IMG/VR virus record: IMGVR_UViG_3300019757_000164
Location: 1 to 64,000 of that record
Strand: one strand, 5' to 3'
Length of the DNA stretch: 64,000 nucleotides
DNA from: a virus
The translations under genes and the position numbers were made by a program. Below are positions 6,464 through 58,660 of the stretch, piece after piece (the first letter of the stretch is position 1; every line of letters begins with the position of its first letter). The notes below the pieces were generated by a model. That model did no database searches, had not been told where the DNA came from, and saw only the letters and a list, made by a program, of their open reading frames with translations.

Positions 6464-6533
6464 TAGTATTTCCAACCACTCAACCCAATTGTGTTTATAA
6501 CATACACTTATGCATTAAATAGGCTCAAAGTGG
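6464..6533. repeat. Dispersed dif-like palindromic repeat, site A
   Basis: tagtatttccaac...attgtgtttataa-CATACAC-ttatgcattaaat...tcaaagtgg. Confidence 0.8.
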
Positions 6534-6535
6534 CA

Positions 6536-6817
6536 TTATAGGTCAAATGAACTCAATCTCCCCATAACCCTCTTGCCGTTTCTAACATCATTAATTGACA
6601 CTCCATTTCTATGAACCTCAACTCCTAGTTCTTCTAATTTTTTAAAAACATCATGACTATCATCAAGATCATGCTCGTACAATGCAATTCCTATTCCACA
6701 CATTGGACAAAATTTCCAATCTTCATTTTCGATATAATAATCACAATCTGGGCAATAGCACTCAGCATCATCTTTTGCGTCATTTGTTGGTGGTGTCCAC
6801 CTTACTAGTTTTTTCAT
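6536..6817 (-). CDS. Small zinc-ribbon protein
   Basis: CPDC...FCPMCG. Confidence 0.6.
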   Translation of the reverse strand: MKKLVRWTPPTNDAKDDAECYCPDCDYYIENEDWKFCPMCGIGIALYEHDLDDSHDVFKKLEELGVEVHRNGVSINDVRNGKRVMGRLSSFDL

Positions 6818-6845
6818 ATTTTCTCCTTTCATAACTTTATAGTTA

Positions 6846-7685
6846 CTACAAGTATTCACTCAAATATTTGCTCCTACTTGGATTTTTTAATTTTCTTAAC
6901 GCCTTTGCTTCGATTTGTCTAACACGCTCTCTAGATATGTATATATCACAATCACAACTCAGCATTCTTGACATTTCTTCCAGCGTTCTAGATTTACCGT
7001 CTTGCAATCCAAATCTATATTTTATTGTTTTCTGTTCTCTAGGAGTTAGTGTGCCTAATGCCTTGGCTATGTCCCTTTGTAGAAAATAATGCTGAACTAT
7101 TTCGTGTTGAGTTTTCAGAGAATCATCTGGAATAAAGTCTCCTAAAAATGAATCTTCTTCTTCACCAATAGGTGTTTCAAGTGAAACAGGTTCTTGGGCA
7201 ATCTTTAGTATTTCTCTAACCTTTTCTACTGGTATATCCATTTCATCCGCAATCTCTAATGGTTTTGGGTCTCTGCTCAATTCTTGAATTAACTGACGCT
7301 TAACTCTGATTAGCTTGTTAATTGTCTCAACCATATGAATTGGAATACGAATTGCTCTAGCTTGATCTGAAATTGCTCTAGTGATTGCTTGTCTGATCCA
7401 CCATGTTGCATAAGTCGAGAACTTGTAACCTTTTCTCCAGTCAAACTTTTCAACAGCCTTAATTAGACCTAAGTTACCCTCTTGAATTAAGTCAAGGAAC
7501 AACATACCTCTACCAACGTATCTCTTAGCAATACTTACTACAAGTCTAAGATGACCTTCTATTAACTTATTTTTAGAATGTTCACATCCATCCTCCATCT
7601 TTTTAGCTAATTCTATTTCTTCTAAGCCAGATAACAGTGGCGTCATTCCAGTTTCTTTTAAATACATTCTTACTGGGTCATCCAT
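6846..7685 (-). CDS. RNA polymerase sigma-70 factor, RpoD/SigA-like, lacking region 1.1
   Basis: [72 protein letters not shown]. Confidence 0.95.
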
Positions 7686-7726
7686 ATAATCTCTCCTTTC
7701 ATAAGAAACTCCCTTAACTTATCTTT

Positions 7727-7755
7727 AGTATATCAGAGTCAAGAGAGAATTGCAA
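7727..7755 (-). promoter_or_regulatory. SigA-type promoter for the sigma factor gene
   Basis: TTGCAA-17 nt-TATACT with TG extension. Confidence 0.65.
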
Positions 7756-7760
7756 GCGTT

Positions 7761-25651: not shown

Positions 25652-25868
25652 ATATCTCCTTTCATCACTTAGTTAACAAATTAAACCCTGCGACCATCAT
25701 TATAGAAGTCACCATTGATAATCCAAACACCATTAAGAATTTGCAAAGACCCATAACATATACCATAGCACAAATTATTCCGACCATTGGAATTCCAACT
25801 AAAAGCCCTCCGATTATCAATATTTTTGTTTTATTCATTCTACCTCCTCTTTTTCTAAATTACACACC

Positions 25869-25940
25869 TAGTATTTTCAACCCTTTAACCCCACAGTGTG
25901 TATAATCGTTTATTATGCATACAATGTCATCAAACACTGA
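25869..25940. repeat. Dispersed dif-like repeat, site B
   Basis: tagtattttcaac...cagtgtgtataa-TCGTTTA-ttatgcatacaat...tcaaacactg. Confidence 0.85.
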
Positions 25941-27465: not shown

Positions 27466-27474
27466 TTTATTTCT

Positions 27475-27513
27475 CCTTTCACTTTATAGTAATTTCAATA
27501 CTTTCAAATGCTG
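27475..27513. repeat. Core-deleted copy of the dif-like repeat
   Basis: cactttatagtaatttcaatactt joined directly to tcaaatgctg; both outer arms match site C but the central core is missing. Confidence 0.6.
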
Positions 27514-27534
27514 TTTATTTCGTCAAATGTTGTT

Positions 27535-28107: not shown

Positions 28108-28303
28108 TCCATCCCCCCTTATTTAGTATGCGACACATCGTACTGTATGCCTTATCTATGCGCGCACATAGTTCTAAGCTTTCCATTATTTCTTTGAATT
28201 CTTCTTCTGTTATTGTATTGTTTTGATACGAATGATTAACTAGCATCAATACCATTTCCCTAACTTTCAATATATCAGACATTTACTTCCTCCTTTCACT
28301 TTA

Positions 28304-28375
28304 TAGCAATTTCAATACTTTAATAGCCATGTGTGTGTAATTGCATCTTATGCACACAATATACTCAAACGCTGA
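28304..28375. repeat. Dispersed dif-like repeat, site C
   Basis: tagcaatttcaatacttt...atgtgtgtgtaa-TTGCATC-ttatgcacacaat...tcaaacgctg. Confidence 0.85.
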
Positions 28376-34198: not shown

Positions 34199-34229
34199 AA
34201 TTAATACTCCTTTTTATAAAATAATAACA

Positions 34230-34301
34230 TAGTATTTCCAATAAGTCAAGTGCATAGTGTCCATATTGCCCAATTATGCATACATGATGCTCAACCGTTG
34301 A
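34230..34301. repeat. Dispersed dif-like repeat, site D, overlapping a promoter
   Basis: tagtatttccaat...tagtgtccatat-TGCCCAA-ttatgcatacat...tcaaccgttg; minus-strand TTGACT-17-TATTAT at 34221-34249. Confidence 0.8.
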
Positions 34302-34722: not shown

Positions 34723-35709
34723 TTAAAATATCTCTCTAATATCCTGCATTTTACTATTTTCCTTCATTTGTAAATAGAATTTTCTAGTTGTTGATATATC
34801 AGAGTGTCCTAATATCTTAGAAGCCATTTCTAATTCAACACCTGCATCCATGAGTCTCTCTACCAATAACTTGCGAAAGCAATGTGGAATTATTTCATTA
34901 AAACCAGTCTCTTCTCTTGCATCATTTATTAGCCTTCTGATATATGCTACACTTCTAAAGTCTCCAGAAGCCTTATATCTATCGGTTGTAAATAAATATT
35001 CGCTATTTCCTCTTCTTTCTCCTGACTCCAAGTAGTCATCTATTGCTTTTTCAACATCTTTGAATAGTGTGACTATTCTTTGCTTAGAGTCACCACGACC
35101 TTTCCCCAAAACTTTTATCAAACCCTGATCTTTATACTCTAGATAATTCTTAATTTTGAATGTAGACACTTCGTTAATCCTCAAACCTTCATAAAAAATC
35201 AACATAGCAATGGCTTTGTTTTGCTTTGGCGTGCCTCTGTCTGAGTTTTGAATTGCATCGATGACCGCTTTCCCCTCTTCTTGTGAGTAATACACTTTAT
35301 GCTTTTGTTCAAATGGATAGTCTACATTTCCACTAATTGGGTTCGTATCGATATGTCCATATTTAACTAAATATTTCATAAATGAGCCAATATTAGCAAC
35401 ATATTTTCTTAATGAAGCATTCTTATATCCATTAGGTGCTCCATCATGACCCGGTGAACTTAACCAATCAACATATTGCTGTGCAACTAGACCTTTCATT
35501 GATCTTATATTCGACACTTTCATCATTTTAATTCTATTTTTAGTCATATACCAGTTGAAAAATCTATTTATAGACTTGTTTTCTTCTTTAATAGTCGTGA
35601 TTTTACATCTTTTCTTTACTTGGTTCATTTCATAGTCTAGCATTAATTCTGCTAATTGATCACTAACTCCATCAAACTTTAATAATTCCTTCAATTCTTG
35701 CTTTTTCAT
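34723..35709 (-). CDS. Tyrosine recombinase, XerC/D-like
   Basis: Catalytic residues intact: GLRINE (R), LGKG (K), PHCFR (HxxR), LGHSDISTTRKFY (H, Y); N-terminal core-binding domain with NPI. Confidence 0.93.
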   Translation of the reverse strand: MKKQELKELLKFDGVSDQLAELMLDYEMNQVKKRCKITTIKEENKSINRFFNWYMTKNRIKMMKVSNIRSMKGLVAQQYVDWLSSPGHDGAPNGYKNASLRKYVANIGSFMKYLVKYGHIDTNPISGNVDYPFEQKHKVYYSQEEGKAVIDAIQNSDRGTPKQNKAIAMLIFYEGLRINEVSTFKIKNYLEYKDQGLIKVLGKGRGDSKQRIVTLFKDVEKAIDDYLESGERRGNSEYLFTTDRYKASGDFRSVAYIRRLINDAREETGFNEIIPHCFRKLLVERLMDAGVELEMASKILGHSDISTTRKFYLQMKENSKMQDIREIF

Positions 35710-35772: not shown

Positions 35773-36644
35773 CCCTTTTCTCAAAGTTTTTTTATTTATT
35801 TTCCCTATTTCTATTTTCCATATTCATTGCCCATCCAAACAGTATCATTGCCGGAATAAGTAGTGGGTTTATGATCCACAATAAAACCAATGAAATAGCA
35901 TACACTATAAATACCAAAGTTTCTCTTCTCATATTTATTCCTCCTTTGTAATATCTATCATTCTTTCTTCGTTGTTTAAATCAAATAATTCATTAACATA
36001 GAATTCAGACTCAAAATAATCATATCCATATCCTTCTACATCGGCAATCATTGCTCTTGCCCTAGTCTTATTTATAGCTTTTACTACCCACTGTTTATTG
36101 CTAATTAAACATTCTACGAGATAAACTTTATTCCTCATATAGCACCCTATTCCTCCAATCTGTTTAATCCATATGAATTTATAACTTTGCTACAACTTTC
36201 AAACTTTTCGATTATATTCGTGAGTTCATGCCTCAAATGATTTAGTAACTGTGATTCATTCTCATAACTATCGCATTCTGAATCCCACAAGAAAATATTA
36301 CTGCCAAAAATATGCAATCCTATGTACTGTACTGCTGTGCTATCGGTTAAATAGAAGCAGATTTCATCAGTTATTTCCCATAATTCATAATTCAATTGAT
36401 CTACAATATTTTGAATTTCCATTTTAAATCCTCCTTTTACTTTTATATATTTTCAATATCCAATTACTTTCTGTACAGTTCAGATTCCCACTCTGCACCA
36501 CATTCATAACAGACATACGTGTCTCCAAATGTGAAATTAACAGTTTCGCAAAATGGACAAGTTCCATCTAATTCGGCTATTTTTCGCTCTTTACTTGCTT
36601 GTTGTGGTGTCTTTAAAATTTTCATTTTACCTCCTTTTACTTTT

Positions 36645-36718
36645 ATATATTCTCAAAATTTCAACCTTATCTAGTTCATAATAACCCAATATGCATACAA
36701 TACGGTGAAAGTGTTTGA
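36645..36718. repeat. Dispersed dif-like repeat, site E
   Basis: ctagttcataa-TAACCCA-atatgcatacaat...tgaaagtgtttg. Confidence 0.7.
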
Positions 36719-37064: not shown

Positions 37065-37115
37065 AATTCCTCCTTTGTATATTTATACATCCTATTTTAC
37101 CCTACTTTTTACTAT

Positions 37116-37190
37116 TCTCTATTTCCAATGTATACAACTCATTGTGTGTATAATTGTATGTTATACATACATGACACTCAAACACGCATG
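37116..37190. repeat. Dispersed dif-like repeat, site F
   Basis: ctatttccaat...attgtgtgtataa-TTGTATG-ttatacatacat...tcaaacac. Confidence 0.85.
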
Positions 37191-37505: not shown

Positions 37506-37746
37506 AAAACCTCCTTCTTAAAATAACTCTTCGTTTAATGATAAAACCTCGTTTGGCGATAGTAAAACGTCTCCATCTTCCTCATATGAGTCTAGCCACC
37601 GATACTTTCCGTCCGACATTTTAACTAATCTTAACGGATATCCCATACAATCATATTGAATTTTATTAGTTCTTTCAACTACTGTTGGGTCTTGTTTTTT
37701 CATCTTAAACAGATTAAAAATATTCATTTTACCTCCTTTTGTTAAT

Positions 37747-37797
37747 TAGTGTTTTCAATATATAATTCAATCCTATGCATAAATGACGATATAGCGT
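37747..37797. repeat. Degenerate dif-like repeat, site G
   Basis: tagtgttttcaatatataa-TTCAATC-ctatgcataaat; left arm shortened. Confidence 0.55.
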
Positions 37798-38484
37798 CTA
37801 TTTTTCTTTAACTCTCCAATATATACAAATGCAATTATCTACCGTAGTATCTCTAGTTTCGTATTCATATTCACCATCTTCGTTTTTAAACGGGGAGTAG
37901 TATCCATTGATTAATATATCATGCCACTTAGACATCTTTTCGTCACTTGATATACATTCATGGAATTCATCTATTGTATCACCATAATATATTCCATAAT
38001 CTCCACTTGTCATTCCAATTTCTACTGAATATTTGTACATATCCTTAACAGTATTTACTAATATTCTTTTTAGATCGTGGCTATAATTGAATCTTTTAGA
38101 GTTGTATTCAATACTTCTTCCAATATTTCCATCGTCATGTCTTTCGCTTGCACATATCCAATCAACCAGCATTTCGGTTACATCAACTAACCCCATACCT
38201 TTAATGCCGTTCTTGTGATATTCTGGATGATGTCTGTTTTCTAAGTAGTGATGCTTAAGTGCAATATTCATTTCTTTTAAATATCCTTTATATTCTTCAC
38301 TACCATATGTACAGTCTTTGAGCTTTGGTGTAAACTCATCAAATGCTTCTTTTTCTGGTGAATATAATTTGCTTTGATCATGTGTTGCGAACCTTTTACT
38401 TAATTCTTTTATTATTTTACTTCCTTTTTCTATAACGTTTTTAATGTGTTCTATTGTATCTTTTGAGCTCTCGTAATTATCCAT
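37798..38484 (-). CDS. DUF5662-like HD-type protein
   Basis: HDQSKL, HHYLENRHHPEY, EMLVDW. Confidence 0.75.
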   Translation of the reverse strand: MDNYESSKDTIEHIKNVIEKGSKIIKELSKRFATHDQSKLYSPEKEAFDEFTPKLKDCTYGSEEYKGYLKEMNIALKHHYLENRHHPEYHKNGIKGMGLVDVTEMLVDWICASERHDDGNIGRSIEYNSKRFNYSHDLKRILVNTVKDMYKYSVEIGMTSGDYGIYYGDTIDEFHECISSDEKMSKWHDILINGYYSPFKNEDGEYEYETRDTTVDNCICIYWRVKEK

Positions 38485-39305: not shown

Positions 39306-39325
39306 TTTACCTCCTTTTTACTATT

Positions 39326-39396
39326 GTGTATTACCAACATTTTAACTCTACTCTGTTTATAATTCAGTATTATACATTAATAGCGATCAAACGGCT
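39326..39396. repeat. Dispersed dif-like repeat, site H
   Basis: gtattaccaac...ctctgtttataa-TTCAGTA-ttatacattaat...tcaaacggc. Confidence 0.8.
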
Positions 39397-40360
39397 ATTC
39401 TTCGTCAAACTCATCGTATCTACACTTTCTATAGTTGGCTAATTTTATATTTATATAACTACCATCAACCCAATCTTGCTGATCATTGTATATAGAAAAC
39501 CACGGCTGGTCTTGTATGTGCATTCCATCGAATAGTTTTCCTTGACAAATATCTGAACACATCATATTCAACCCTTTACCCTTAATAAAAGTTTTTAACT
39601 CATCTATTACATATTGATCAAGCCAATATATTGTAAAAGAAGTGTAATCATGGTTTGCCACTAAGTGCATTTTAGAATAGTCTAAATTATATTCTTTATG
39701 ATACTCAAACATTTCTCCGTTAATCCAGTAGCTTCCATTCACCACAATATGTACATCGTTTTCATCGAATGTTCTAATTATATCACTCAACATTTCTTCG
39801 CTATTTAAAAACCAATGCCATCTATCGTCATTTACGTATTCATCATACCACTCCCAATATCTATCATCATTATATCTATTTTCATAATCATATAACTTGC
39901 TATCACAAGTGCCTATCTTTAACCTGTCAGAGTGTTTCCAGTTTCTTTGTTTGTATTTGATCTTTTGACTGCCAAAATATCTCTTACCTTTTGGATTGGT
40001 TTTAGGAGTACATAGTGAGCAACTACAGAAGTTCTTTCCTTTATTTAAAGACTGTAGGGGTTTGTCATGTAAGTGCATATATCCATGTTTTCTTTTATAG
40101 ATGGCTTTAGACCAATTCTTCTTTCTTCTCTTGGCTCTAGTCATATCTTTTGAATAATCAACAACTTCATATCTGTCTCTATAGTTATCAAACCCGCTCA
40201 ATAGATAGTCCCACTCATTGTATTCTAAAGCCATTTCATAATAAGCTTCTTCTCCTCCATTATCAGGAACAATCAAACCAGTACCAAAATCAAATGGCTC
40301 ATTTTGTAGTTCTCTGTATATCTCTATTTCTTTTCTAGTGCATCCTTCATATATATACAA
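39395..40360 (-). CDS. Hypothetical protein; single-gene cassette between sites H and I
   Basis: 321 aa with a basic segment and CSCSLC. Confidence 0.65.
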   Translation of the reverse strand: MYIYEGCTRKEIEIYRELQNEPFDFGTGLIVPDNGGEEAYYEMALEYNEWDYLLSGFDNYRDRYEVVDYSKDMTRAKRRKKNWSKAIYKRKHGYMHLHDKPLQSLNKGKNFCSCSLCTPKTNPKGKRYFGSQKIKYKQRNWKHSDRLKIGTCDSKLYDYENRYNDDRYWEWYDEYVNDDRWHWFLNSEEMLSDIIRTFDENDVHIVVNGSYWINGEMFEYHKEYNLDYSKMHLVANHDYTSFTIYWLDQYVIDELKTFIKGKGLNMMCSDICQGKLFDGMHIQDQPWFSIYNDQQDWVDGSYINIKLANYRKCRYDEFDEE

Positions 40361-40389
40361 AATTTCACCTCTTTTCTTGTTTTTACTTT

Positions 40390-40461
40390 ATACTGTTTCC
40401 AACGCTTATACGTCATTGTGCGCATAATCACCTATTACACACACATTAGCTTAAAACGGCT
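40390..40461. repeat. Dispersed dif-like repeat, site I
   Basis: ctgtttccaac...attgtgcgcataa-TCACCTA-ttacacacacat...taaaacggc; GTGCGCATAA matches 10 of 11 nt of the E. coli dif XerC arm. Confidence 0.85.
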
Positions 40462-40703
40462 ATTTCTCAACATTGTCGTACCAACCTCCTATTATTAAAA
40501 AAAATTTAAGAAGGCTCAATCTTATATAATATATTGGCTTTAGATCGTATTTATATGTGCTAATAACCATCTTTGATCCTGAGTGAGTATTCGTTGTTTT
40601 TTGTGACACCATGCTTTCAATTGGCAATAGCATTTTAGAAAAGCATATGCCTAAATTTTTCTCATTATCACTATACTTTTGTATAAAGACTCCTTTTTTT
40701 ATT

Positions 40704-42345: not shown

Positions 42346-42878
42346 ATAAATTAAATGAACATATGTACAATCCAAGCCTCTAACCATAATACTGGTGGAA
42401 ATAAGACTTGATACATTGCCTTTTTGTCTTTTTCTTCTTCCGTTTTATCGTCGTCGTCAATTCTAAATCCTACACATGATTTCAAGAACAACCCAATACC
42501 TAATACATGAGCCATATTAATTTCTGGCATACCAATCGTAACCATAAACCAGATTGATTAATTGAATTCATACGATTCCTCCATTTCATTTTCAAATAAT
42601 TTTTCGTTAACTATACTTATGCCTCCATTCTTAAAATATACTTAAATTCTGACGGATGTTCATTTATTTTTTCTGACACTTCATGGATAAATTTGGATTC
42701 AGAATAGTCAATATTTTCACCTTGAACCCAGTTGTCATAATTTGATGTACAATCATTGCACATCTGCCAATCTTTTTCATCTACTTTATAAGTACAGTTG
42801 CTACAGTCAATGACTGATAAGATTTTTTCTTGTTTTTCTTTAATATTCATAAGCTCCTCCTTTTCTAATTTTAACTTT

Positions 42879-42950
42879 GTGCTATTACCAACGGTTTAAC
42901 GATAATGTGTGTATATTCTATTATTACACATACAATGCCATCAAACACTG
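42879..42950. repeat. Dispersed dif-like repeat, site J
   Basis: gctattaccaac...aatgtgtgtatat-TCTATTA-ttacacatacaat...tcaaacactg. Confidence 0.85.
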
Positions 42951-43219
42951 TAACTTCCGTCATAATGTCTACATTTATCTAACTCGAGCCCTATCTCAGA
43001 CCATGCTTTTTCTGAAGCTTTCATATCTTCATCATTCATATAGCCATGGTCAGTAAAATCCCAGTGTTTATCTTTTATAATTATTACCTGTCTGCCAAAA
43101 GCCCAATGGTCAACAAATTTTCCGCATTCTTCACATCTAGTGCATTGTTCTTCCAATCCATACTCATCATAGTAGCTTTTGTTATACATATTCTCATTCC
43201 CACAAATTGGACAAATCAT
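42941..43219 (-). CDS. Small Zn-ribbon protein
   Basis: CPICG...CEECG; stop codon lies in the arm of site J. Confidence 0.6.
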   Translation of the reverse strand: MICPICGNENMYNKSYYDEYGLEEQCTRCEECGKFVDHWAFGRQVIIIKDKHWDFTDHGYMNDEDMKASEKAWSEIGLELDKCRHYDGSYSV

Positions 43220-43680: not shown

Positions 43681-43959
43681 ATTAATCCCTCCTTTATCTA
43701 GCCATGGTAAGTCATTTCAGCTACGGCATCTAGTAAATTTTCATATTCTTCAATAGTAATAGTAACAAATCTGTCACTACTGTAACCTAAAACCTTGCCA
43801 TTACCATTACTTAAATGAAGCTCTTCACTCCAGTAGTATAAATATTCAATAACCTCATCCATCGTTAGTGTATCGATTTTCAATGAATCTCTTTTTAAAA
43901 TAGAGCGTCTTATTTCTAGTGCTTTCTGTATATTCATGCTTAACTACTCCTTTTCCTTT

Positions 43960-44032
43960 CCACTATTTCCAACACTTACGGTACTATGTATGCATAATTG
44001 TAAATTATACACACAATAGACTCAAAGCGTTG
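43960..44032. repeat. Dispersed dif-like repeat, site K
   Basis: ctatttccaacactt...tatgtatgcataa-TTGTAAA-ttatacacacaat...tcaaagcgttg. Confidence 0.88.
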
Positions 44033-44636: not shown

Positions 44637-44666
44637 ATATTCCTCCTTTTATTGATTTTGAGTTTA

Positions 44667-44737
44667 TAGTATTTCAAACCCTTACATCCCAATGTATGCA
44701 TATGACATAATTATGCATACATTTAGGTCAAATGGTG
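44667..44737. repeat. Dispersed dif-like repeat, site L
   Basis: tagtatttcaaac...aatgtatgcatat-GACATAA-ttatgcatacatt...tcaaatggtg. Confidence 0.88.
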
Positions 44738-45141
44738 ATTTTTAATCTACGAATCTAACGTCGGCTGGGTACAAAGTATTGATTTCTCCATTATCAATCT
44801 CTACTATAGCAACTGACACCGCAAACCCATTTTCAAGATCTCCCGAGTCTTCCAATCCCCACTGATGGAACGTGGCTTTCACATACTTATCCTTGTAATG
44901 TGAATTAACACCCGTTTCTTTGTTGTATGGTACATATTCTCTAATGTTGACTTCTACTGCTCTCATTTTAAATCCTCCTTATTCAACCTCTTCGATTTCT
45001 ACGGTTCTGGCAAATTCCACCACATCTGTAAACAGCGCATTTAGATTCCCTTCAATATCATCCAAATATTCCTCATTAACATCCTCAAAAGTGATTACGT
45101 ATTTCTTTTCCATTTCTTCCTCCTTTCGTCAATTTAACTAT

Positions 45142-45210
45142 ATATTATTTCTAACACTTTAACAGTCATGTAATCATAATTACCTCTTATGCACACAGTA
45201 GCCTCTAATC
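45142..45210. repeat. Dispersed dif-like repeat, site M
   Basis: ttatttctaacacttt...catgtaatcataa-TTACCTC-ttatgcacacagt. Confidence 0.8.
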
Positions 45211-45738
45211 TAGTAAATCGACCAGATCACTGTGGTATATTTCAAACCACTCCATCAAATCTTGTATCTCCAAAGCTATACAATTGTGTTGTAAATTGAC
45301 ATCCTCTCCTCCTTCAGAGAAGTAATCATATCCAAGAATGTTTGTAAACTCTGATAGTTTGTAGAATGGAATCCACAATATAACCGATTGGCTTTCTTTT
45401 TCGATCCTGTATTCACAATTTGATATAAATTTAATCATTTTATATCCGCTTAAATCCATTTCACTCATGTTTACCTCCCTATAAAATTAATCTAAGTTGA
45501 TTTGATATAATTGACCCTTATAGTGATATGGTTCATATCCCAATTCTACAAGTTTTTCAAACGTGGTTTGACTTGTAATTCCAATTCTAAGATTGTTGCC
45601 TCGTGCATTTGATTTTTTTATGCAAGAAATGACATACTTTAATTCAAACCAATTATATAATTTAGAACATTTTTTTAATTTGGTTAAGTCTTCTTTTTTC
45701 ATTTTACTCTCCTTTCGTTTCCTTCATCCTTTGATATA

Positions 45739-47428: not shown

Positions 47429-47444
47429 AAATTCCTCCTTTTTA

Positions 47445-47516
47445 AATTCCCAATGGTTTCATCCTATTTAATGCATAAGGATATATTATAGTTACATTAG
47501 GTTCAAAGTATTGCAA
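47445..47516. repeat. Dispersed dif-like repeat, site N
   Basis: attcccaat...atttaatgcataa-GGATATA-ttatagttacatt...tcaaagtattg. Confidence 0.8.
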
Positions 47517-48486: not shown

Positions 48487-48488
48487 AT

Positions 48489-48857: not shown

Positions 48858-49181
48858 CTTTAACCTCCTCAAGTCGTTTTGTTTATTTCTAATACAATAA
48901 TAACAGAAAAAACCGCCCATTGCAAGCGATTTTTAAAAGTTTTTTATTTAATTATAAAGTAAACTCATCAGAATCGATTTGTACTGCAATAAATTTCTTT
49001 TCAATGATCCATAAATAACCTTCAGATGTTTTCAATCTATGAGTCGTATTGCTATTATAGAAGTGTGTCACCCCATTAATAGTCAATTTTGATCCATCTG
49101 AGTAATGATATACTCTTGATCTCTCAATGTGTTTAAGTTTTTGTAGTTCCATAAATACCTCTCTTTCTTATTTTCACTTTA

Positions 49182-49262
49182 TAGTAATACCAACACCTTA
49201 TCTCTAGTGTGTGCATATTTATTAGTTATCAACACAATCACCTCTAACCCTTGCAAATGCTA
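49182..49262. repeat. Dispersed dif-like repeat, site O, downstream of tnpB
   Basis: tagtaataccaac...agtgtgtgcatat-TTATTAG-ttatcaacacaat-cacc-tctaa-cc-cttgcaaatgcta. Confidence 0.8.
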
Positions 49263-50412: not shown

Positions 50413-50419
50413 CTCCTTT

Positions 50420-50478
50420 GTGTTATTTCATTTCACATTGTAATCATAATGTTCTATTATACATACAATAGCTTAAAC
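50420..50478. repeat. Dispersed dif-like repeat, site P, upstream of tnpB
   Basis: attgtaatcataa-TGTTCTA-ttatacatacaat-agc-ttaaac. Confidence 0.8.
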
Positions 50479-50804
50479 TATTCACCACCGTTATATAAGA
50501 AACATTCTTGATCTTTAAAAGATTCTAGCATATTGCAAAACGCATCTAGTAACTTTGTAGTATAGCTAGATATTAAATTGTCTGCACAGCACAGTTCTTC
50601 AACTTCATCTATTCCAGCAGTTAAAGTCCCCCATATGACACTACATTCTTCCTCATCGACATTAAATCCTTGACCTCCATTTGACCTAAGTAACTGTGTC
50701 TCAGATAGAAGCTCAGACTTTAGCTCTCCTAAACTCCATCCTTCTTGATTCCTAATAAAATTTACGATCACATCAATTGTATCATTGTTCATTTTTACAT
50801 CCAT
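50478..50804 (-). CDS. Hypothetical acidic protein; cassette between sites P and Q
   Basis: ORF with RBS. Confidence 0.6.
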   Translation of the reverse strand: MDVKMNNDTIDVIVNFIRNQEGWSLGELKSELLSETQLLRSNGGQGFNVDEEECSVIWGTLTAGIDEVEELCCADNLISSYTTKLLDAFCNMLESFKDQECFLYNGGE

Positions 50805-50827
50805 AAATATCCTCCTTTCCTATTTTA

Positions 50828-50885
50828 GCCATTTATAGGCATTTTTTGATAATCACTAATTATCGTTACAATTACTGTGTATTTT
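50828..50885. repeat. Degenerate dif-like repeat, site Q
   Basis: attttttgataa-TCACTAA-ttatcgttacaat. Confidence 0.55.
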
Positions 50886-51935: not shown

Positions 51936-51943
51936 AAAGCCTC

Positions 51944-52016
51944 CTTTCAATTTTCAACGTTTATCCACACTGTATGTATAATAAAGTATTATACATTAAT
52001 GGTGCTTAAAGCGTTG
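51944..52016. repeat. Dispersed dif-like repeat, site R
   Basis: attttcaacgttt...actgtatgtataa-TAAAGTA-ttatacattaat...ttaaagcgttg. Confidence 0.85.
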
Positions 52017-52019
52017 CGA

Positions 52020-52688: not shown

Positions 52689-52702
52689 ATCAATTCTCCT
52701 TT

Positions 52703-52735
52703 CATTAATTGCGGTCAAAGTGTTGGAAATACTAC
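52703..52735. repeat. Half-site of the repeat (right arm only), site S
   Basis: cattaat-tgcgg-tcaaagtgttggaaatacta, the reverse complement of the consensus left outer arm. Confidence 0.7.
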
Positions 52736-52736
52736 A

Positions 52737-53264
52737 TTACTTACTTTCCCACATCAGATGCTCACACCAATTATATTCATCTTCTTTTCCACCAACTGAC
52801 CAACTTGGATATGTATACATATCACTGAAACATTCATTTTTGTTTGTGATCAATACCTCTTTGTTATATGAGCTGATTTTTATAAGTGCATCTTCAATGA
52901 TAATCCTGTCTGACAGTCTACATATAAAATTCATAAATTCCTTAAATGTTTCTTCAAATTCTCTGTCACGTAATGAGCCGTCTACAACTAGTATATACTG
53001 GTCTTGAGTTCTCAACCATCCACCTCTTCTATTGTTGTTGCCATACCAATCTAATAGGTTGTCTGTTCTCCATCCATACTCATCGAATGATGAACTACTA
53101 TTGAATCCATCCTTCTGTATTACATATTTACTCATGTCTTTCTCACTTCCAGTAACTAGAGGTAAGTGATTTAACACAGTATCTAAGATATATCTTTTTT
53201 CAGCCTGTGTTCTGCCCATTGGCGATAATGTTATTGTTCCGTTTACATAAGTCCAAGCACTCAT
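52737..53264 (-). CDS. Conserved hypothetical phage protein
   Basis: MSAWTYVNG, HLPLVTGSE, GSLRDR. Confidence 0.65.
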   Translation of the reverse strand: MSAWTYVNGTITLSPMGRTQAEKRYILDTVLNHLPLVTGSEKDMSKYVIQKDGFNSSSSFDEYGWRTDNLLDWYGNNNRRGGWLRTQDQYILVVDGSLRDREFEETFKEFMNFICRLSDRIIIEDALIKISSYNKEVLITNKNECFSDMYTYPSWSVGGKEDEYNWCEHLMWESK

Positions 53265-53768: not shown

Positions 53769-54780
53769 GGCTTACTCCTTTCGCATACTCGCAGTATTCA
53801 TCCCATGTCATATCTAAATATTCATTAATAGGTAGACATGAATCAGATTTATGCCATTCTTCAATTTTCTTTTCGATTTCTTCATCTCTGCTGTTCAATA
53901 CTTCATTTTTATATTTTTCTAGTAAAAAACCGTTTGAAAAAGTATTCATATTTCCTCCTTTGTTTTGTATAGATTTACTTGCATAAAATTATATCCAATT
54001 TTACCATCTTGTCTTGGGCAAAGATTCTTTTTTCTAAAGTTGAAATGAATAAAATTAGTTGTAGCATCATCTATATCATGGTAATATGGACACCCTCTTG
54101 AATATATACAGAATGATAAATCACATCTAAATCTATCTTCTATATTATCAGACATCATATCTTGATAGTTTTTAGTTTCTTTCGTATAGTATTTTGGTTT
54201 AAACATATTGCCTCCATTTTTTTTATTTCAACAATCCCTCGTATCTAATCATTTAGCCCTACTTAATACAATATTAATTTAAATAACTTTGATCCTTCAA
54301 TATGTTTACTTGCCACATTTCTAATGCAATCCATTTCGATCCATCTTGTGATATAAGAATTGATTCCTCATCTTCAAACAAATGACAATCATTATCTCCA
54401 TCAATCCAAATTCCTTTTCCCTTAGAAATTGCAAATTCTACATTGTGTAGATCAATAAACTCAACAACCTCAGATGGTGTTTCATTATCTTTGTTTAAAT
54501 AACTCTCTAATTCCTCATAAGTAATAACTAAATATTTCATATAAACCTCCTTATATAATTCATTCACAATTTTCATGCCAAACTACTTGTCCACTCATAT
54601 GTGTAAAATATTCCTCTTCAGAGCCATCTTTGATCTCTTTTTGGCATCTATCACCTAGGAAAACGAATGTTTTAGTCAATACAATTTCTCCAGTTTTGTA
54701 TTCGTAGCAGTCATAAGATATGTGGTGATATATCCATTCTTTTATTTTAGAAATAAATTTAACCATATAATTCCTCCTTT

Positions 54781-54850
54781 CCAATTTTCAACGTTTCGTC
54801 TTATTGTGTGCATATTGAGGTAATCTACACACAATGACTTCAAGATGTCT
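54781..54850. repeat. Dispersed dif-like repeat, site T
   Basis: attttcaacgttt...attgtgtgcatat-TGAGGTA-atctacacacaat...tcaagatg. Confidence 0.8.
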
Positions 54851-55052: not shown

Positions 55053-55412
55053 TTACCACTTATTACAAAACTCTTCTTTCTTGAAAACTAATAGCACTTC
55101 TTGTTTTTTAACTCCAATCAATTTAATATCTTTTAATTTATTGTTTGAGTAATTTGATATCGTATTGCTTGCCTCAAGAGCACTAGTTCTACCGCTTTGT
55201 ACTATTACAAATACATATTTACCAATATATTCTTTTCTACAATAATAATATAAGCTCATGTCCAAACAAGTTGCGTTATTTAATTCTTTAATAAAACTAT
55301 TGTATGAATCATCATCACCTAAAACTAATGTATAGAAGTGTGATAATTGTGGATTTCTTAGATATTTATTGCTTATCCTTAAATTTAAATACTTTAATCC
55401 TTCTATTTTCAT
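55053..55412 (-). CDS. Hypothetical protein
   Basis: ORF with RBS. Confidence 0.55.
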   Translation of the reverse strand: MKIEGLKYLNLRISNKYLRNPQLSHFYTLVLGDDDSYNSFIKELNNATCLDMSLYYYCRKEYIGKYVFVIVQSGRTSALEASNTISNYSNNKLKDIKLIGVKKQEVLLVFKKEEFCNKW

Positions 55413-55668
55413 TTATTCCTCCTTTCAAACCAGCTCCTGAGTTTTTACATTAACTAATACTTCTTCAAACATATCAATATGAAAATTGATTAAGTTTAAA
55501 TTTACACTATCTCCGGTTTTTAAATCTTTAAAATCCGCAAAAATATAAACAATTATACGACCCGTATTTAAATTTTTAAAACCCGGTCTGATGTCATTAT
55601 AAATATCTTCTGATTCAATTAATTCTGCTATTCTATTTAACACGTCTCTTAATTTCATAATTGCCTCC

Positions 55669-56661
55669 TTATACATTATTATTTGACTTATTCTTATCAT
55701 AAACCTCAATTGATTTATTGATTCTATCTGGATTAGTATGTCTTTTGTCTAGAAACTGCTCAAATGTCAACTTTTTAAACATACTTGGTTGATTACAGTA
55801 AGCTGAGTAATCTTTAATAAAATGATCATACTCGCTTCCCCAACAATTCTTGTCTCTCATTATATATGGTAAAACTTTATTCTTTCTACACCATTCTACA
55901 CGATAAATCATGTCATGTAAAGTCATAAATTCAACATTATGGTAGACGTAAAATTTCATCTTCCAGTCCTTTGCGATATGTTTTTTCATCATTGGTAATT
56001 TCTTATTTAGCATCTTTTCATATTTAATATCATCAAATGCAAATATATACTCTCCCATGTAGTTCAACTTAGATAGCAACTCCATTTTACGGTCAGTAGC
56101 TAGTCTGAAGTCTAGTCCTTGATTAAAATCAACTCTAATATTCATTTCAATCAATTCTTCAAATACTTCTTCGCATTTATCATATGCAAATATGTTGTTA
56201 TCATAGAATTTAACTTTCTTGTGCTGAATAATATCTGACAATTCATTATACTTCTTAAGTTTACCTTCGAATTTAGGAACTTTACAGAACCAGCAATTTC
56301 TAATACAACCTCTGGTAATAAACCCATGACTTGTGTTTTCATCTTCGAAGTAAAATGGCTGTAGAGCTTCTATTTCTGGATCTAATTGTAACGCTGGATT
56401 AATTGATCCTATGCCACCAATAACCACATCCAAGCATCCTGTAATCTCAAATCTGGTTTGATTAATCTCAAATAAATTACTCACATACACTTTATCATAA
56501 GCACTAGCATCTATAGATTTAAATACTTTAGATGGAAATGCTGTCATGTTTAGATCAATCATTTTAACCTCGTGGTCTTCTTTGTTTAGATAATGCTTAT
56601 ATAGTTTTCTAATTGCTATATTAAATTTACTATCTACGTTTACTAATAATATTTTTTTCAT
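55669..56661 (-). CDS. Radical SAM protein of unknown function
   Basis: TRGCIRNCWFC (CxxxCxxC), DNN, FNQGLD, FAFD. Confidence 0.85.
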   Translation of the reverse strand: MKKILLVNVDSKFNIAIRKLYKHYLNKEDHEVKMIDLNMTAFPSKVFKSIDASAYDKVYVSNLFEINQTRFEITGCLDVVIGGIGSINPALQLDPEIEALQPFYFEDENTSHGFITRGCIRNCWFCKVPKFEGKLKKYNELSDIIQHKKVKFYDNNIFAYDKCEEVFEELIEMNIRVDFNQGLDFRLATDRKMELLSKLNYMGEYIFAFDDIKYEKMLNKKLPMMKKHIAKDWKMKFYVYHNVEFMTLHDMIYRVEWCRKNKVLPYIMRDKNCWGSEYDHFIKDYSAYCNQPSMFKKLTFEQFLDKRHTNPDRINKSIEVYDKNKSNNNV

Positions 56662-56685
56662 AATTACCTCCTTTACTATATAATA

Positions 56686-57846
56686 TCACTTATATGCACT
56701 ACTGTCAATACCTAATCTAACTTGAGTGTCTTTGCGTCTTTTGTCTCTTAAAAACTTATATTCTTCGAGATATTCAAAAAAGTCGTTCTCTGTATTTATT
56801 GTATCCGGTAGATCATACTCTATTAGTTGCTTGTTGTAATTTTTAAAAAATATCTTTTCGGCAATTAAGCGTATTTCTAATGCATCTACAAATTCTGAGT
56901 ACTGTCCCAAGTATATCGTTTTCCCGTCTTTTTTTATTCTAGATCTATACACCGTACTCCCCTTGCTTTTATGCACCGATACGCCTGGGTGCCCGCTAGA
57001 ATTATTAGATTGAATTCTTTTGTTCATTCCATTTTGCGAAGGGGTCACCTCTCTTAAATTACATCTCCTATTGTCGGATTTATCTCCATTAATGTGATCT
57101 ACATAATTACCTCCTTCTGTGGTCAATATTATTTTGTGCAATCTAAGATTCTTCACATTGCCATCAACTCTTCTAGTAGTGTGCAAATAACCATCGTCAC
57201 CCAAAACCCAAGTAAACCCTTTTGCTTTTACATAATCTACTTTATCTATGAAAAAAGTATCGGCGTTACTTGTGTATCCCATTATAAAATCACCTTTCTC
57301 CTCATACCTGTTACCTTTTATTTCAAATAGCCCTGTTCGGCACCCACACGTCTTTATATGACCATTTTTTATCTCTGTAAGCCTAATATCTTTTTCTTTC
57401 CCACAGTCACATATACATTTTGCTACTGTACACCTGTTGTCTATATCTTTATAAACGTCTAATATTTTAAGTGCGCCATACTTGTTACCTATTTCTTCGG
57501 ATGCCTTCTTTAAATATATATCTCTGTTTTTATCGGTTCTGATCTCATTTGTCCTATACTCATTATGCCAATCACTCAAGTTGCTCGATCTTTTTTTAAT
57601 ATTTTCTGGGTCTAGTCCTGCACACCTAAGTGAGCAATATTTAGTAAAACCAAGTGTTAAGTTTTTAAAGGTTTTATCTTTCCCACAAATTTTACACCTT
57701 CCGTCATCTTTGTGGTTGATAAATTCTATATAGTATTCTTTTTTCGAAATATATGGATGAGATTTTGTAATATGTAAGGACAAGCCTTGTATCTTAGTAA
57801 ATGATTTCCCGCATATTTTACATACATATGTTACTTTGTTATCCAT
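56686..57846 (-). CDS. HNH homing endonuclease with Zn fingers and AP2 domain
   Basis: C2H2 CKICG...HITKSH, CICDCG, VDHINGDKSDNRRCNLR, NNSSGHPGV...IYLG. Confidence 0.88.
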   Translation of the reverse strand: MDNKVTYVCKICGKSFTKIQGLSLHITKSHPYISKKEYYIEFINHKDDGRCKICGKDKTFKNLTLGFTKYCSLRCAGLDPENIKKRSSNLSDWHNEYRTNEIRTDKNRDIYLKKASEEIGNKYGALKILDVYKDIDNRCTVAKCICDCGKEKDIRLTEIKNGHIKTCGCRTGLFEIKGNRYEEKGDFIMGYTSNADTFFIDKVDYVKAKGFTWVLGDDGYLHTTRRVDGNVKNLRLHKIILTTEGGNYVDHINGDKSDNRRCNLREVTPSQNGMNKRIQSNNSSGHPGVSVHKSKGSTVYRSRIKKDGKTIYLGQYSEFVDALEIRLIAEKIFFKNYNKQLIEYDLPDTINTENDFFEYLEEYKFLRDKRRKDTQVRLGIDSSAYK

Positions 57847-58295
57847 TCTGGCTCCTTTCTTTTCTTCCAATTAAATAAATCTCTCTTATCATTGTTGTAA
57901 TACCTTCTATACGCCTCCACTGCACATTCTGATTTATACTCATCTGGCATAGCCTGTGCGTGTTTTGTTAATCCTCTAGCTGGTAAATCTGGCAATTGCA
58001 TATCAATTAATAATTCTCCAGATTTATGTTGTTTGCCATATCTATATGTATACTCATCGTATAAAGCCATAGCATGATTATATAGCCATATCCAATTATC
58101 TAATGAATACCTAGCCCATACTGTACAAGGATGGTTCTTGTGAGCTAATCTATATGTAGCTAAATGCTCTTGATCTGTATAGTAATATGCGGACTGAAGT
58201 ATTTGTACTTCTTCCAGTAGCTGTTTGACCACGTGCTTATCTACATGATATTCAGCACATTTTTTAAAATCATAGTCTAAAATAAATATATTCAT
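57831..58295 (-). CDS. Pyrimidine-dimer DNA glycosylase/endonuclease V (DenV-like)
   Basis: MNIFILD, HVDKHVVKQLLE, HKNHPCTVW, EYTYRYGKQH, QAMPD, AYRRYY. Confidence 0.8.
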   Translation of the reverse strand: MNIFILDYDFKKCAEYHVDKHVVKQLLEEVQILQSAYYYTDQEHLATYRLAHKNHPCTVWARYSLDNWIWLYNHAMALYDEYTYRYGKQHKSGELLIDMQLPDLPARGLTKHAQAMPDEYKSECAVEAYRRYYNNDKRDLFNWKKRKEPEWITK

Positions 58296-58365
58296 AATTC
58301 CTCCTAGTTGATATAAGTTATTAACTAACTACATATTACACGAAAAAAGATGGCTTGTCAACCAT

Positions 58366-58569
58366 CTAATTATTATTATCTTCATTAAATTGTAACATTG
58401 TGTAAATAAACATAACTAATGATGCTATAATAAGAATTGATGATCCTACTTTTGGAATCGAGCCACGAATATGAAAAACTTTTACTCCACACTCAGCCAA
58501 TGTTAATGTGATTAAGCACAAAATAATGTATTTTCTCCAGTTTTCTCTTACATTTTTATTAATCTTCAT
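58366..58569 (-). CDS. Small membrane protein
   Basis: Two hydrophobic helices; starts MKINKN. Confidence 0.55.
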   Translation of the reverse strand: MKINKNVRENWRKYIILCLITLTLAECGVKVFHIRGSIPKVGSSILIIASLVMFIYTMLQFNEDNNN

Positions 58570-58582
58570 TTAATCCTCCTTT

Positions 58583-58660
58583 TTATTTTCAACGTTTCAA
58601 CTTATTTAATGCATAACCTTCAATTATGTATACGATGCGTTTAAGGTGTTTAAACTACTA
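58583..58660. repeat. Dispersed dif-like repeat, site U
   Basis: attttcaacgttt...atttaatgcataa-CCTTCAA-ttatgtatacgat...ttaaggtgtt. Confidence 0.8.

Follow-up and report, generated by a model that had tools for sequence, protein, structure and literature searches.

What function is served by a single 75-base palindromic element that occurs in some 20 copies, placed ahead of accessory genes, in an uncultured 125-kb phage? The initial annotation of our window (the whole stretch of 64,000 nucleotides analyzed) had listed 20 such sites and read them as recombination sites delimiting shuffled gene cassettes. That the copies constitute a genuine family is apparent from a 29-nt dyad pattern which, allowing at most three mismatches, has 10 matches in the window as against 0.01 expected from 100 shuffles; as a control, the same pattern read backwards has none. 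We then scored the entire record (124,854 bp) over 22 specified arm positions. All 18 positions scoring at least 18/22 are elements, and a score of 17/22 recovers two further elements (36671 and 37755) together with two non-elements (47136 and 73000). Thus, the record holds 20 elements, all in a single orientation that matches the minus-strand genes, with none found among the plus-strand structural genes in the same whole-record scan. Nineteen of the 20 originally listed sites are recovered in this manner, the one at 50841 being degenerate (below 16/22), and one further perfect copy emerges at 66325, outside the window. Solitary arms outside the elements number 19, and 20 shuffles gave 20.3 on average; this lack of enrichment indicates that the arms occur only in pairs.

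At the core of the element is a 29–33-bp dyad, in which two arms of 11–13 bp flank seven unconstrained bases, and the constant 7-nt spacer recognized at the outset accommodates every one of the 20 sites with no gap needed. Farther out, about 25 bp to each side of the center, lie two more symmetric arms, which are weaker, and an asymmetric leader, purine-rich after the dyad, runs into the ribosome-binding site. The sites also lie, as described, with a stop codon upstream and the ribosome-binding site of the next gene downstream, the element filling the intergenic gap: the next start codon is 42–93 nt beyond the palindrome center in 18 of 20 cases (the exceptions being tnpB, whose weak ribosome-binding site was missed by the script, and the 66325 copy, which has no gene nearby), and the upstream stop is 21–48 nt before the center in 17 of 20, thrice being the TGA of a conserved TTTGA.

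All copies in the window are on the minus strand and are given here by span, followed by palindrome and arm score in brackets, each supported by alignment. The copy at 6453..6535 (6490-6518; 19/22) is the sole one in the replication-gene block, where it comes after a sigma-factor gene and a 107-aa ORF and before a gene coding for a GmrSD_N domain. At 25858..25940 (25895-25923; 21/22) the upstream ORF terminates at the TGA of TTTGA. Further copies are found at 28293..28375 (28330-28358; 21/22), 34219..34301 (34256-34284; by arm scoring), 39315..39397 (39352-39380; 18/22), 40380..40462 (40417-40445; 20/22), 42869..42951 (42906-42934; 20/22), 44656..44738 (44693-44721; 21/22) and 45132..45214 (45169-45197; 20/22). 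Two have perfect arms, namely 37106..37188 (37143-37171; 22/22) and 43950..44032 (43987-44015; 22/22), and two have weak ones, 36634..36716 (36671-36699; 17/22) and the short form at 37730..37800 (37755-37783; 17/22). The tnpB gene (49309-50412) has a copy downstream of it, 49171..49253 (49208-49236; 19/22), and another immediately before it, 50415..50484 (50439-50467; 20/22). Short forms are also seen at 47440..47513 (47468-47496; 18/22), where the ribosome-binding site immediately follows GTTGGGAAT, at 51945..52016 (51971-51999; 20/22), at 54779..54850 (54805-54833; 19/22) and at 58580..58651 (58606-58634; 18/22), the first of the leftward gene block. The degenerate copy at 50815..50884 retains a remnant 6-bp inner dyad with a 5-nt gap. 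Sequence comparison additionally uncovered two minus-strand derivatives that lack the palindrome: 27466..27525 (repeat family D15), in which the outer left arm abuts the outer right arm and leader with 83% identity to the matching part of the 28330 copy, and 52700..52741, comprising an outer arm and an extension.

A dyad transcribed within the leaders of genes, and followed there by a purine-rich stretch, could act at the level of RNA, namely as a 5′-leader hairpin that serves as a processing site, a stabilizer or a translational operator recognized by an RNA-binding protein, and several copies indeed form long hairpins (−16 to −25 kcal/mol). However, the hairpins of six copies are no more stable than −10 kcal/mol, and cognate arms pair no better than non-cognate ones: in an extended 28-pair hairpin 62.2% of the cells pair, versus 60.5 ± 1.3% for arms re-paired at random across copies, and 43 of 500 such shuffles equalled or exceeded the observed figure. 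Among the 260 inner-arm pair cells, the coding strand has 175 Watson–Crick, 18 G:U and 67 unpaired cells, and the other strand 175, 15 and 70, respectively, such that neither strand is favored; nor is there covariation between the arms (the score was reached by 102 of 500 shuffles) or any match to an Rfam family in 84,000 bases. We accordingly regard an RNA-level role as improbable. The dyad symmetry is present at the level of the consensus only, which, along with the absence of covariation and of a G:U bias, suggests that a symmetric protein recognizes the element in the form of double-stranded DNA, in keeping with the original preference for protein-binding sites over RNA hairpins.

The position of the elements is also promoter-like. 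In the leftward block, which is headed by a canonical TTGACA-17-TAAAAT promoter (59280..59308, minus strand, from a promoter scan), there are about 10 canonical promoters, the others being at 19623, 22941, 26927, 30097, 34249, 42043, 45767, 53332 and 56708. Of the 48 gaps of at least 40 nt in this block, 19 hold an element and eight a canonical promoter, with one holding both and 22 neither. Since elements and canonical promoters thus occupy different gaps with a single exception, the upstream cassettes appear to fall into two classes. This might be explained if the element were a class of promoter specific to the phage, of the middle or delayed-early type, with the dyad read by an RNA polymerase bearing a phage-modified or phage-encoded specificity factor. 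Consistent with such a proposal, the end of the left arm forms a −10-like hexamer at −8..−3 (A 18/20, T 19/20, A 20/20, A 17/20, T 14/20), the end of the right arm yields another at +11..+16, TTGA is conserved at −24..−21 (T 20/20, A 20/20), and intergenic repeats of the halovirus HF2 are reported to carry promoters (PMC8707807). Against it, the other strand carries an equal mirror image of the −10-like hexamer, as in a dyad rather than a directional signal, and the best hexamer pairs with SigA spacing are scattered, with none at a consistent position in the elements. A strong promoter is found in only two, the 34256 copy (canonical TTGACT-17-TATTAT just downstream of the palindrome) and the 66325 copy, being downstream of the dyad both times. 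Moreover, the phage-borne SigA/RpoD-like sigma factor (6846..7685, minus strand; 279 aa; regions 1.2, 2, 3 and 4) has a six-residue insert before the region 4.2 helix, and its −10- and −35-reading residues match those of a solved SigA (7l7b_F, which is not from the host of this phage); hence, it does not account for a new promoter type. Finally, genes upstream have their 3′ ends within the element and lack a terminator there, so that read-through would be expected anyway. Taken together, these points leave a dedicated promoter class unlikely, albeit the most probable of the alternatives to an operator.

The cassette hypothesis takes the dyads for core sites of the phage tyrosine recombinase or the host Xer, with strand exchange in the spacers capturing, excising and reordering the enclosed genes in the manner of integron cassettes or pdif modules. 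Several observations speak for it. The recombinase (34723..35709, minus strand; 328 aa), described from the start as intact, XerC/D-like and equipped with its own promoter, is the sole PF00589 gene in the record, sits inside the array, and has a TTGTAA-17-TATAAT promoter at about 35750-35780. Its catalytic R, E, K, H, R, H and Y are invariant in five homologues of 35–100% identity. The noted dif-like geometry is likewise real, with 11–13-bp arms ending in ATAA and TTAT around a short spacer; published pdif sites share these junctions and have arms of 11 bp (PMC13141974). As for the six element pairs said to enclose exactly one gene, four are bounded by two good elements, whereas two are weak on one side, the boundary being the 50841 copy for 50478-50804 and the palindrome-less fragment for 52020-52718.

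However, pdif sites that recombine with each other are reported to have spacers that are the same or almost the same, and the sites bounding a dif module to be inversely oriented (PMC13141974). In the phage all elements share one orientation, at a fixed distance from the next ribosome-binding site, and every spacer is different: none of the 190 pairs among the 20 elements is identical, and one pair matches at 6/7 positions against 4.2 expected. Unlike XerC/XerD sites, which pair two distinct arms, the phage arms are symmetric with no separate XerD-type arm. The recombinase is Xer-like with a complete set of catalytic residues in its sequence; it is not an integron integrase, as it lacks the characteristic signature of these enzymes and attains only 34.6 bits with their model (cut-off 265). 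Similarly, the 67 mismatched arm cells of 260 and the missing covariation make an attC-like folded strand unlikely. Among five relatives (37–45% polymerase identity), all five carry recombinases and none has the dyad.

Evidence on the breakpoints comes from comparison with one variant metagenome contig, L058. It begins with a recombinase 3′ end that is 97% identical to that of the phage, continues with a 92-aa gene where the phage has a different one of 139 aa, then has the orthologue of the 34256 element with an identical 7-nt spacer, and goes on to 2.1 kb of genes that match nothing in this phage. One element thus coincides precisely with a mosaic junction, as a cassette system might have it. 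However, the element is kept whole, spacer and both flanks included, with homology ending at −39 and +67, and the genes to its left and right are different, implying crossovers at the edges of the element and not in its core, where the cassette hypothesis had placed the breakpoints; one of the replaced genes also has no element on its far side. Some contigs have joints or loose ends in or beside elements (34242 to 43986; 40437 to 41974; 37126 and 37168), which would also suit site-specific shuffling. Cross-mapping between similar copies is another possible source of such joints. On balance, the spacer diversity, edge breakpoints, symmetric arms and uniform orientation render cassette recombination at the 7-nt spacers improbable, and operators for a dimeric regulator, which the initial annotation had listed as an alternative, provide a better fit.

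Accordingly, we favor, at about even chances, the interpretation of these elements as dispersed, oriented regulatory cassettes of the operator type, which at the same time mark mosaic junctions. A symmetric DNA-binding protein, either a dimer or a pair of dimers, would bind the dyad on double-stranded DNA and control transcription into the accessory gene that starts 42–93 nt downstream. It could do so either as a repressor or roadblock acting on read-through from the few canonical promoters, or as a factor recruiting RNA polymerase where a SigA promoter is absent. The elements would then be conserved islands between fast-changing genes, and modules could be swapped among related phages by general recombination at or beside them, as opposed to strand exchange in the spacers. 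When the 40 window proteins were compared with Pfam, no DNA-binding regulator domain was found at the curated cut-off; what matched was three kinds of DNA enzyme (the recombinase, a cytosine methylase and TnpB), the sigma factor, and an HNH protein whose zinc-finger hits stayed below threshold. Because the geometry of the site is Xer-like, we tentatively put forward the phage's own recombinase as the binder, a minority prospect even if the operator interpretation is right. In counterpoint to that interpretation, the geometry of the site, with its ATAA-N7-TTAT junctions, is precisely that expected for use by a tyrosine recombinase dimer, and the recombinase family retains every catalytic residue, which leaves recombination at the sites some probability.

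The binder could instead be a host protein, with the dyads read by host Xer as a dif-like site or by host DnaA, and serving as decoys or coupling accessory-gene expression to the state of the host. The phage arms presumably resemble the DnaA box, and we likewise take an arm to resemble that of XerC. In a scan of 185,579 species genomes, four genomes from four phyla have one perfect dyad each, with that in an Acidaminobacteraceae MAG agreeing with the consensus of the phage across arms of 14 bp; a G+C content of 59–66% in two of the four makes a chance match in these, by estimate, very unlikely. However, the four bacterial sites share no common neighboring gene family and have no recombinase gene near them, and half of the phage arms deviate from the DnaA-box consensus at one position, which is an important one. 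We therefore give a host reader the least credence of the explanations considered here.

An operator-type role for the elements has several parallels. A relative (G003; polymerase 43% identical) has a dyad family of its own, with 20 exact copies situated mostly 0–15 nt before ribosome-binding sites. PeSL cassettes, stoperators and SPBRE/MrpR sites provide precedents for operator-type cassettes that mark mosaic junctions, and the L5-type stoperators lie in short intergenic spaces oriented with transcription, the phage elements being likewise oriented and intergenic. The SPBRE repeats are described as bound by a repressor with a recombinase fold, MrpR/SroF, and offer a precedent for the operator interpretation proposed here.

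The dyad pattern of the dispersed ~75-base palindromic element returned 10 matches in the window against 0.01 expected, and the reversed pattern, serving as the control, returned none. Scoring of the arms along the whole record yielded 18 positions with at least 18 of the 22 letters, every one of them an element, and two weaker elements at 17. The scan recovered 19 of the 20 sites listed in the initial annotation, the exception being 50841, a decayed copy, and added a perfect one at record position 66325 (22/22, the best dyad), which lies outside the window. The element is best read on the minus strand, since the genes are on that strand. Read in this way, a block TTTGA is conserved at −25 to −21 from the dyad centre (with T−24 and A−21 in all 20 copies) and is mirrored, more weakly, at +21 to +25; the core runs 5′ to 3′ as an 11–13-nt left arm, seven free bases and a mirrored right arm, the spacer being 7 nt long in 20/20 copies, as originally claimed. 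An asymmetric leader, GTTGGAAAT, runs into the ribosome-binding site, with ~15 further conserved bases in 14 copies. The mean column identity across the copies is 66%, and by their flanks all 20 point one way, along the direction of the genes. An upstream stop codon lies 21–48 nt before the centre in 17 of the 20 copies, in three cases being the TGA of the TTTGA block itself, and the next start codon follows the centre by 42–93 nt in 18 of the 20.

Two incomplete copies were also seen on the minus strand: at window 27466–27525 the outer arms are joined and the central dyad (~45 nt) is gone, and the copy at 52700–52741 consists of a fragment of an outer arm plus its extension. These copies mean either that the dyad can be cleanly lost or that an older unit of outer arms received it by insertion. 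The perfect copy at 66325 is held in a 1.3-kb stretch devoid of long ORFs (record 65467–66787; 1467–2787 of locus L005), where the dyad is directly followed by a TTGACC-18-TATATT promoter with no gene within 200 nt. Rfam has no match in record 65467–66787; the stretch may give a non-coding transcript or serve as a control region.

The genome that bears this array is an IMG/VR record of 124,854 bp classed as a provirus, with an estimated completeness of 96%, of which the window is the first 64 kb. From 1 to ~58.9 kb all genes are on the minus strand, and code for replication functions, an anaerobic ribonucleotide reductase, a RecJ-like protein and many small ORFs; divergent canonical promoters occupy 59–63 kb and plus-strand structural genes 78–124 kb. 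The terminase is at most 28% identical to that of any INPHARED phage, with distant matches including the Clostridium phage c-st, and all 16 listed sequencing runs with the stretch are microbial-mat metagenomes, none of them registered as RNA. The host is probably a member of the Clostridia. The phage also codes for two DUF5662 paralogues (window 37798–38484 and record 70590–71219, both on the minus strand), one of which lies between two elements.

The palindrome might be a protein-binding site on double-stranded DNA, as the initial annotation preferred, or an RNA hairpin. Mismatches between the arms occupy 67 of 260 cells, and G:U pairs number 18 and 15 on the two strands, with neither strand preferred. 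In a 28-pair extended hairpin, 62.2% of the positions are paired, against 60.5 ± 1.3% when the 3′ partners are shuffled among the copies, the observed value being reached in 43 of 500 shuffles; the covariation score, equalled in 102 of 500, likewise does not rise above them. As pairing is no better than in the shuffled sets and covariation is absent, the symmetry is a property of the consensus rather than of each copy. Judged from the aligned copies, such consensus-level symmetry would be expected of a site for a symmetric DNA-binding protein, but not of a folded RNA or of an attC strand in its folded form. Solitary arms are not enriched (19 against 20.3 expected), and an Rfam scan of 84,000 bases gave no matches. 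The RNA hairpin is accordingly set aside on the missing G:U bias, the missing covariation and the empty Rfam scan, the first two of which bear out the earlier choice of double-stranded sites.

We then considered whether the elements could be promoters or terminators. Among the 48 intergenic gaps of at least 40 nt, 19 contain an element and eight a canonical promoter, with both present in only one; some ten canonical promoters belong to the leftward block itself, one of them behind a terminator. The best SigA-type hexamer pairs within the elements do not share a consistent position, which rules out an internal canonical SigA promoter for most copies. A strong promoter is found only in the copies at 34256 and 66325 (2/20), downstream of the dyad in both, and this places the dyad centre ~50–56 bp upstream of the expected transcription start. 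At its inner end the left arm has a well-kept hexamer, but because this is mirrored equally in the right arm it is indistinguishable from the dyad itself. No element copy has a T-run after the dyad, and a terminator scan of 45000–64000 found none at the nine elements there. Several of the canonical promoters have the motif AAAAAGTG in common; this family of near-consensus promoters, with the motif upstream of TTGACA, occurs at window 59424–59460, 62462–62498, 63235–63271 and 42020–42050 and at record 68526 and 71935; it is concentrated in the divergent 59–63 kb control region, with one member inside the accessory block behind a terminator.

The phage codes for a 279-aa sigma factor (window 6846–7685, minus strand), a primary sigma of the SigA/RpoD type lacking region 1.1. 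It scores 470 bits against the Firmicute RpoD model and 402 bits against its best solved relative, chain 7l7b_F, which we take to be from a Clostridioides difficile RNA polymerase entry. The region 2.4, 3.0 and 4.2 residues of this aligned SigA, whose structure is not from the host of the phage, are all kept, and a 6-residue insert with two cysteines directly precedes the region 4.2 recognition helix. Since its −10- and −35-reading residues equal those of the solved SigA, the phage sigma is unlikely to be the reader of a new promoter class; most likely, going by these residues, it reads the canonical promoters. A sigma-70 region 2 match is present in one of five relatives identified by their polymerase. 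Searches of 71 proteins from 61 distinct ORFs with Pfam, PHROGs and NCBIfam detected no DNA-binding regulator domain above a curated cut-off, DNA enzymes, the sigma factor and one zinc-finger/HNH protein being set aside.

The only PF00589 gene in the record encodes the Xer-like tyrosine recombinase (328 aa, window 34723–35709, minus strand), which has its own promoter and is situated inside the element array on the same strand as the genes. Its nearest solved relatives are XerA, an XerC-like protein and XerD, and it falls below every curated NCBIfam cut-off. All five members of its family (35–100% identity) share the invariant catalytic residues R, E, K, H, R, H and Y, so the protein is probably an active enzyme; hence, the description of an intact XerC/D-like recombinase with its own promoter in the accessory region holds. 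An identity as an integron integrase can be rejected, for the TIGR02249 model gives 34.6 bits against a cut-off of 265, with the match limited to the C-terminal 54 residues. The MrpR structure 8A0A is absent from the 28 PDB matches of the recombinase at E up to 1. Twelve contigs encode an identical recombinase, P0002 and P0003 are homologues of 63–66% identity, and IMG/VR searches with the window protein and with two further queries (P0004 and P0003) returned nothing; a family profile retrieved from IMG/VR only relatives of 24–25% identity, and the dyad is absent from two metagenomic relatives at 23%.

The initial annotation had proposed that this recombinase, or the Xer machinery of the host, captures, excises and reorders the accessory genes as cassettes. 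Among the 190 pairs of spacers none is identical and one agrees at six of seven positions, against 4.2 such pairs predicted from the column frequencies; in the excerpted text on pdif sites, every observed recombination is between identical or nearly identical spacers (PMC13141974). The breakpoints point the same way in the one readable variant contig, L058 (2,658 nt), which was found by a metagenome scan with the recombinase and matches its 3′ end at 97%. Next to the recombinase a different 92-aa gene replaces the 139-aa gene of the window, and beyond the element lie 2.1 kb of ORFs with no counterpart in this phage; the element itself matches the 34256 copy at 91% over −39 to +67, with the same spacer and four changed arm letters. 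Thus, both neighbours have been swapped and the element kept, which implies that it was inherited whole. The crossovers, as read from this alignment, lie at the element edges and a gene start and not in the core, contrary to the expectation that breakpoints would fall in the 7-nt spacers. Taking the all-different spacers, the edges in L058 and the missing integron-integrase signature together, cassette capture, excision and reordering is not supported.

A different role for an active recombinase would be that it reads the dyads and acts on them, with the unique spacers barring recombination within a genome, such that only the same-spacer site of a co-infecting relative could serve as partner and accessory modules would be swapped in register between phage genomes through an array of mutually incompatible sites. 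If an active enzyme does read the sites, the unique spacers would indeed keep them from recombining with each other, and the array would amount to a natural form of recombinase-mediated cassette exchange that guards the genome from internal deletions. The conservation of the spacer in L058 with different genes on either side is compatible with such an exchange; however, the homology there stops at the element edges, and one of the two replaced genes is bordered by an element on a single side. We therefore regard this scenario as very improbable.

Logan contigs from four of the 16 runs were compared over 34000–53999, with 24 of the 153 loose ends and 40 of the 158 differences in letters listed. 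There are joints from 37500 to 38874 (two start codons) and from 42344 to 42856 (a stop codon and a ribosome-binding site), and others that touch elements, from 34242 to 43986 and from 40437 to 41974. At 44017 the loose end is a product of cross-mapping and corresponds to the flank of the 66325 copy, and several joints have short sides of 21–30 letters. Because similar copies cross-map and sides are short, these joints are evidence neither for nor against recombination in the core. One contig matches only the 43-nt dyad of the 37143 copy, flanked by a foreign ribosome-binding site and a consensus-like left flank, which shows that variant phages in this habitat have further copies. In one of the four runs, X15, contigs are absent over the single-gene unit 39395–40360 (39336–40002) with its neighbours covered, and near it other runs show loose ends (39308) and a segment that is replaced between 39888 and 41334. 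The gene at 39395–40360 may be variable in the population, a contig hole in itself being no proof.

The dyad is absent from all five phages with 37–45% identical polymerases, though all five carry recombinases. A pattern scan of IMG/VR returned 29 stretches on 29 contigs, with one site each and no multi-copy contig, and of two large IMG/VR contigs searched, one has a single site with three mismatches and the other none. One phage relative from IMG/VR, G003 (polymerase 43% identical; loci L045–L051), has a dyad family of its own, ATAAAA-N6-TTTTAT, with 20 exact copies and 46 at no more than one mismatch, against an estimated ~0.6 expected. Most of these precede, by 0–15 nt, the ribosome-binding sites of genes on the minus strand (e.g., L045:6657, L047:7126 and L047:12818), and a second dyad, TATGA-N5-TCATA, occurs 15 times. 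A single perfect copy of the dyad is also present in each of four bacterial genomes: a Chloroflexota chromosome (66% G+C) and Acidaminobacteraceae, Betaproteobacteria and Faecousia MAGs (the loci being L061:1139–1167, L062:1424–1452, L063:7874–7902 and L064:251–279). Neither a common neighbouring gene family nor an adjacent recombinase gene was found at these four loci.

Hence, we favour the reading that the elements are operator-type sites, a network read by a single symmetric DNA-binding protein, because their anatomy, their placement and their behaviour as conserved islands fit it; going by these sequence features, we rate its chances as about even. In effect, the suggestion of operators for a dimeric regulator, offered in the initial annotation as an alternative, is now preferred over cassette recombination. 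The protein would bind the dyads and control the downstream accessory genes, whether by repression, by blocking read-through or by recruiting the polymerase. By analogy, the Xer-like protein itself is a fair candidate for the reader of the dyads: Xer sites have the same arm length, ATAA/TTAT junctions and short spacer; its nearest solved relative, XerA, is a single-recombinase Xer that works as a homodimer; and SPbeta-like phages use the recombinase fold as a master repressor on dispersed intergenic repeats. If the operator-type reading is true, one protein would switch about twenty accessory-gene units in an uncultured 125-kb microbial-mat phage, and the dyad would provide a handle for finding the regulator and for defining a temporal or lysogeny-linked class of genes without cultivation. 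It would also caution that perfect tyrosine-recombinase site geometry beside an intact recombinase need not mean recombination sites. Should the Xer-like protein be the reader, the precedent of the recombinase-fold repressors MrpR and SroF would be widened to include an enzyme whose catalytic residues are intact and a site that is symmetric.

Within the reach of the IMG/VR scans and of a single scan each of metagenomes and genomes, the element is a new sequence family, a judgement that rests on these scans and not on a literature search for the exact motif. Dispersed regulatory repeats at phage gene boundaries are already known, the excerpted literature describing PeSLs, stoperators, SPBRE and the HF2 intergenic repeats. 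Comparable in layout are the phage-plasmid P1, with its dispersed C1 operators and Lpa-dependent late promoters, and the IncP plasmids, with their KorA and KorB operators: in each, one regulator reads many scattered short sites, and P1 also encodes an unrelated tyrosine recombinase, Cre. The present phage resembles them in having many copies of a short site spread over a large mobile genome that also encodes a tyrosine recombinase; however, the sequences and hosts differ, in P1 and IncP the regulators are known, and no feature seen here marks the element as part of a plasmid-prophage. What is conserved in the attC sites of integrons, used by IntI, is the folded single strand rather than the sequence. 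Like them, the elements place one imperfect inverted repeat after each gene in one orientation, and more loosely, their outer boxes end in ...CAAC and GTTG..., reminiscent of the attC R boxes. Unlike them, the elements are conserved in sequence without covariation, and the recombinase lacks the IntI signature. An integron carries attI and a cassette promoter beside a divergent intI at one end of its array; the recombinase gene here is within the array and on the strand of the other genes.

The pdif sites of Acinetobacter plasmids, as presented in the excerpted source (PMC13141974), share the arrangement of many Xer-type sites between accessory genes and ~11-bp arms ending in ATAA/TTAT. However, in pdif the XerC and XerD arms differ from each other, the spacer is 6 bp, each module lies between sites in inverse orientation, and sites that recombine have identical or nearly identical spacers, whereas here both arms have the same consensus, position by position, once reverse-complemented, the spacer is 7 nt in every copy, all copies share one orientation and the 20 spacers are all different. 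The PeSL (promoter-early stem-loop) cassettes of T4-type phages (Arbiol et al. 2010, PMC2839356; Comeau et al. 2014, PMC4122927) are likewise small conserved cassettes between non-essential genes in the plastic regions of a large phage, and they sit where relatives differ by gene insertion, deletion or replacement. Mini-circles are also a PeSL feature, and no counterpart to them was seen in this phage. Here, the one replacement junction at an element, in L058, is compatible with such a placement. A PeSL is, however, a strong sigma70-like promoter plus a terminator stem-loop, whereas the elements lack a consistent SigA promoter (a strong one in 2/20), a U-tract terminator and RNA-level covariation.

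For Cluster A mycobacteriophages such as L5 and TipsytheTRex, the published account (PMC9283540) describes operators and stoperators as more than 20 copies of one site in promoter regions and short intergenic spaces, oriented with transcription. The same placement is found here, with 20 copies oriented with the genes, 19 of which fill 19 of the 48 gaps of at least 40 nt. In that system a known repressor binds, as a monomer, to asymmetric sites of 13 bp, in contrast to the 29–33-bp dyads with an outer arm pair in this phage. The SPBRE repeats of SPbeta-like phages are bound by a recombinase-fold master repressor, MrpR/YopR/SroF (PMC10516654; bioRxiv 10.1101/2025.11.27.690993). MrpR keeps three of the seven catalytic residues (PMC10516654), and the box of 26 bp to which the SroF monomer binds is asymmetric, whereas here all seven residues are invariant, so that the loss of catalysis does not extend to this protein, and the elements are symmetric. 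The two systems nevertheless share a large phage of the Firmicutes type, an element repeated in many intergenic regions and a recombinase-fold protein as reader, here a candidate one, and the cited work states that tyrosine recombinases may have been recruited widely to act as transcription factors.
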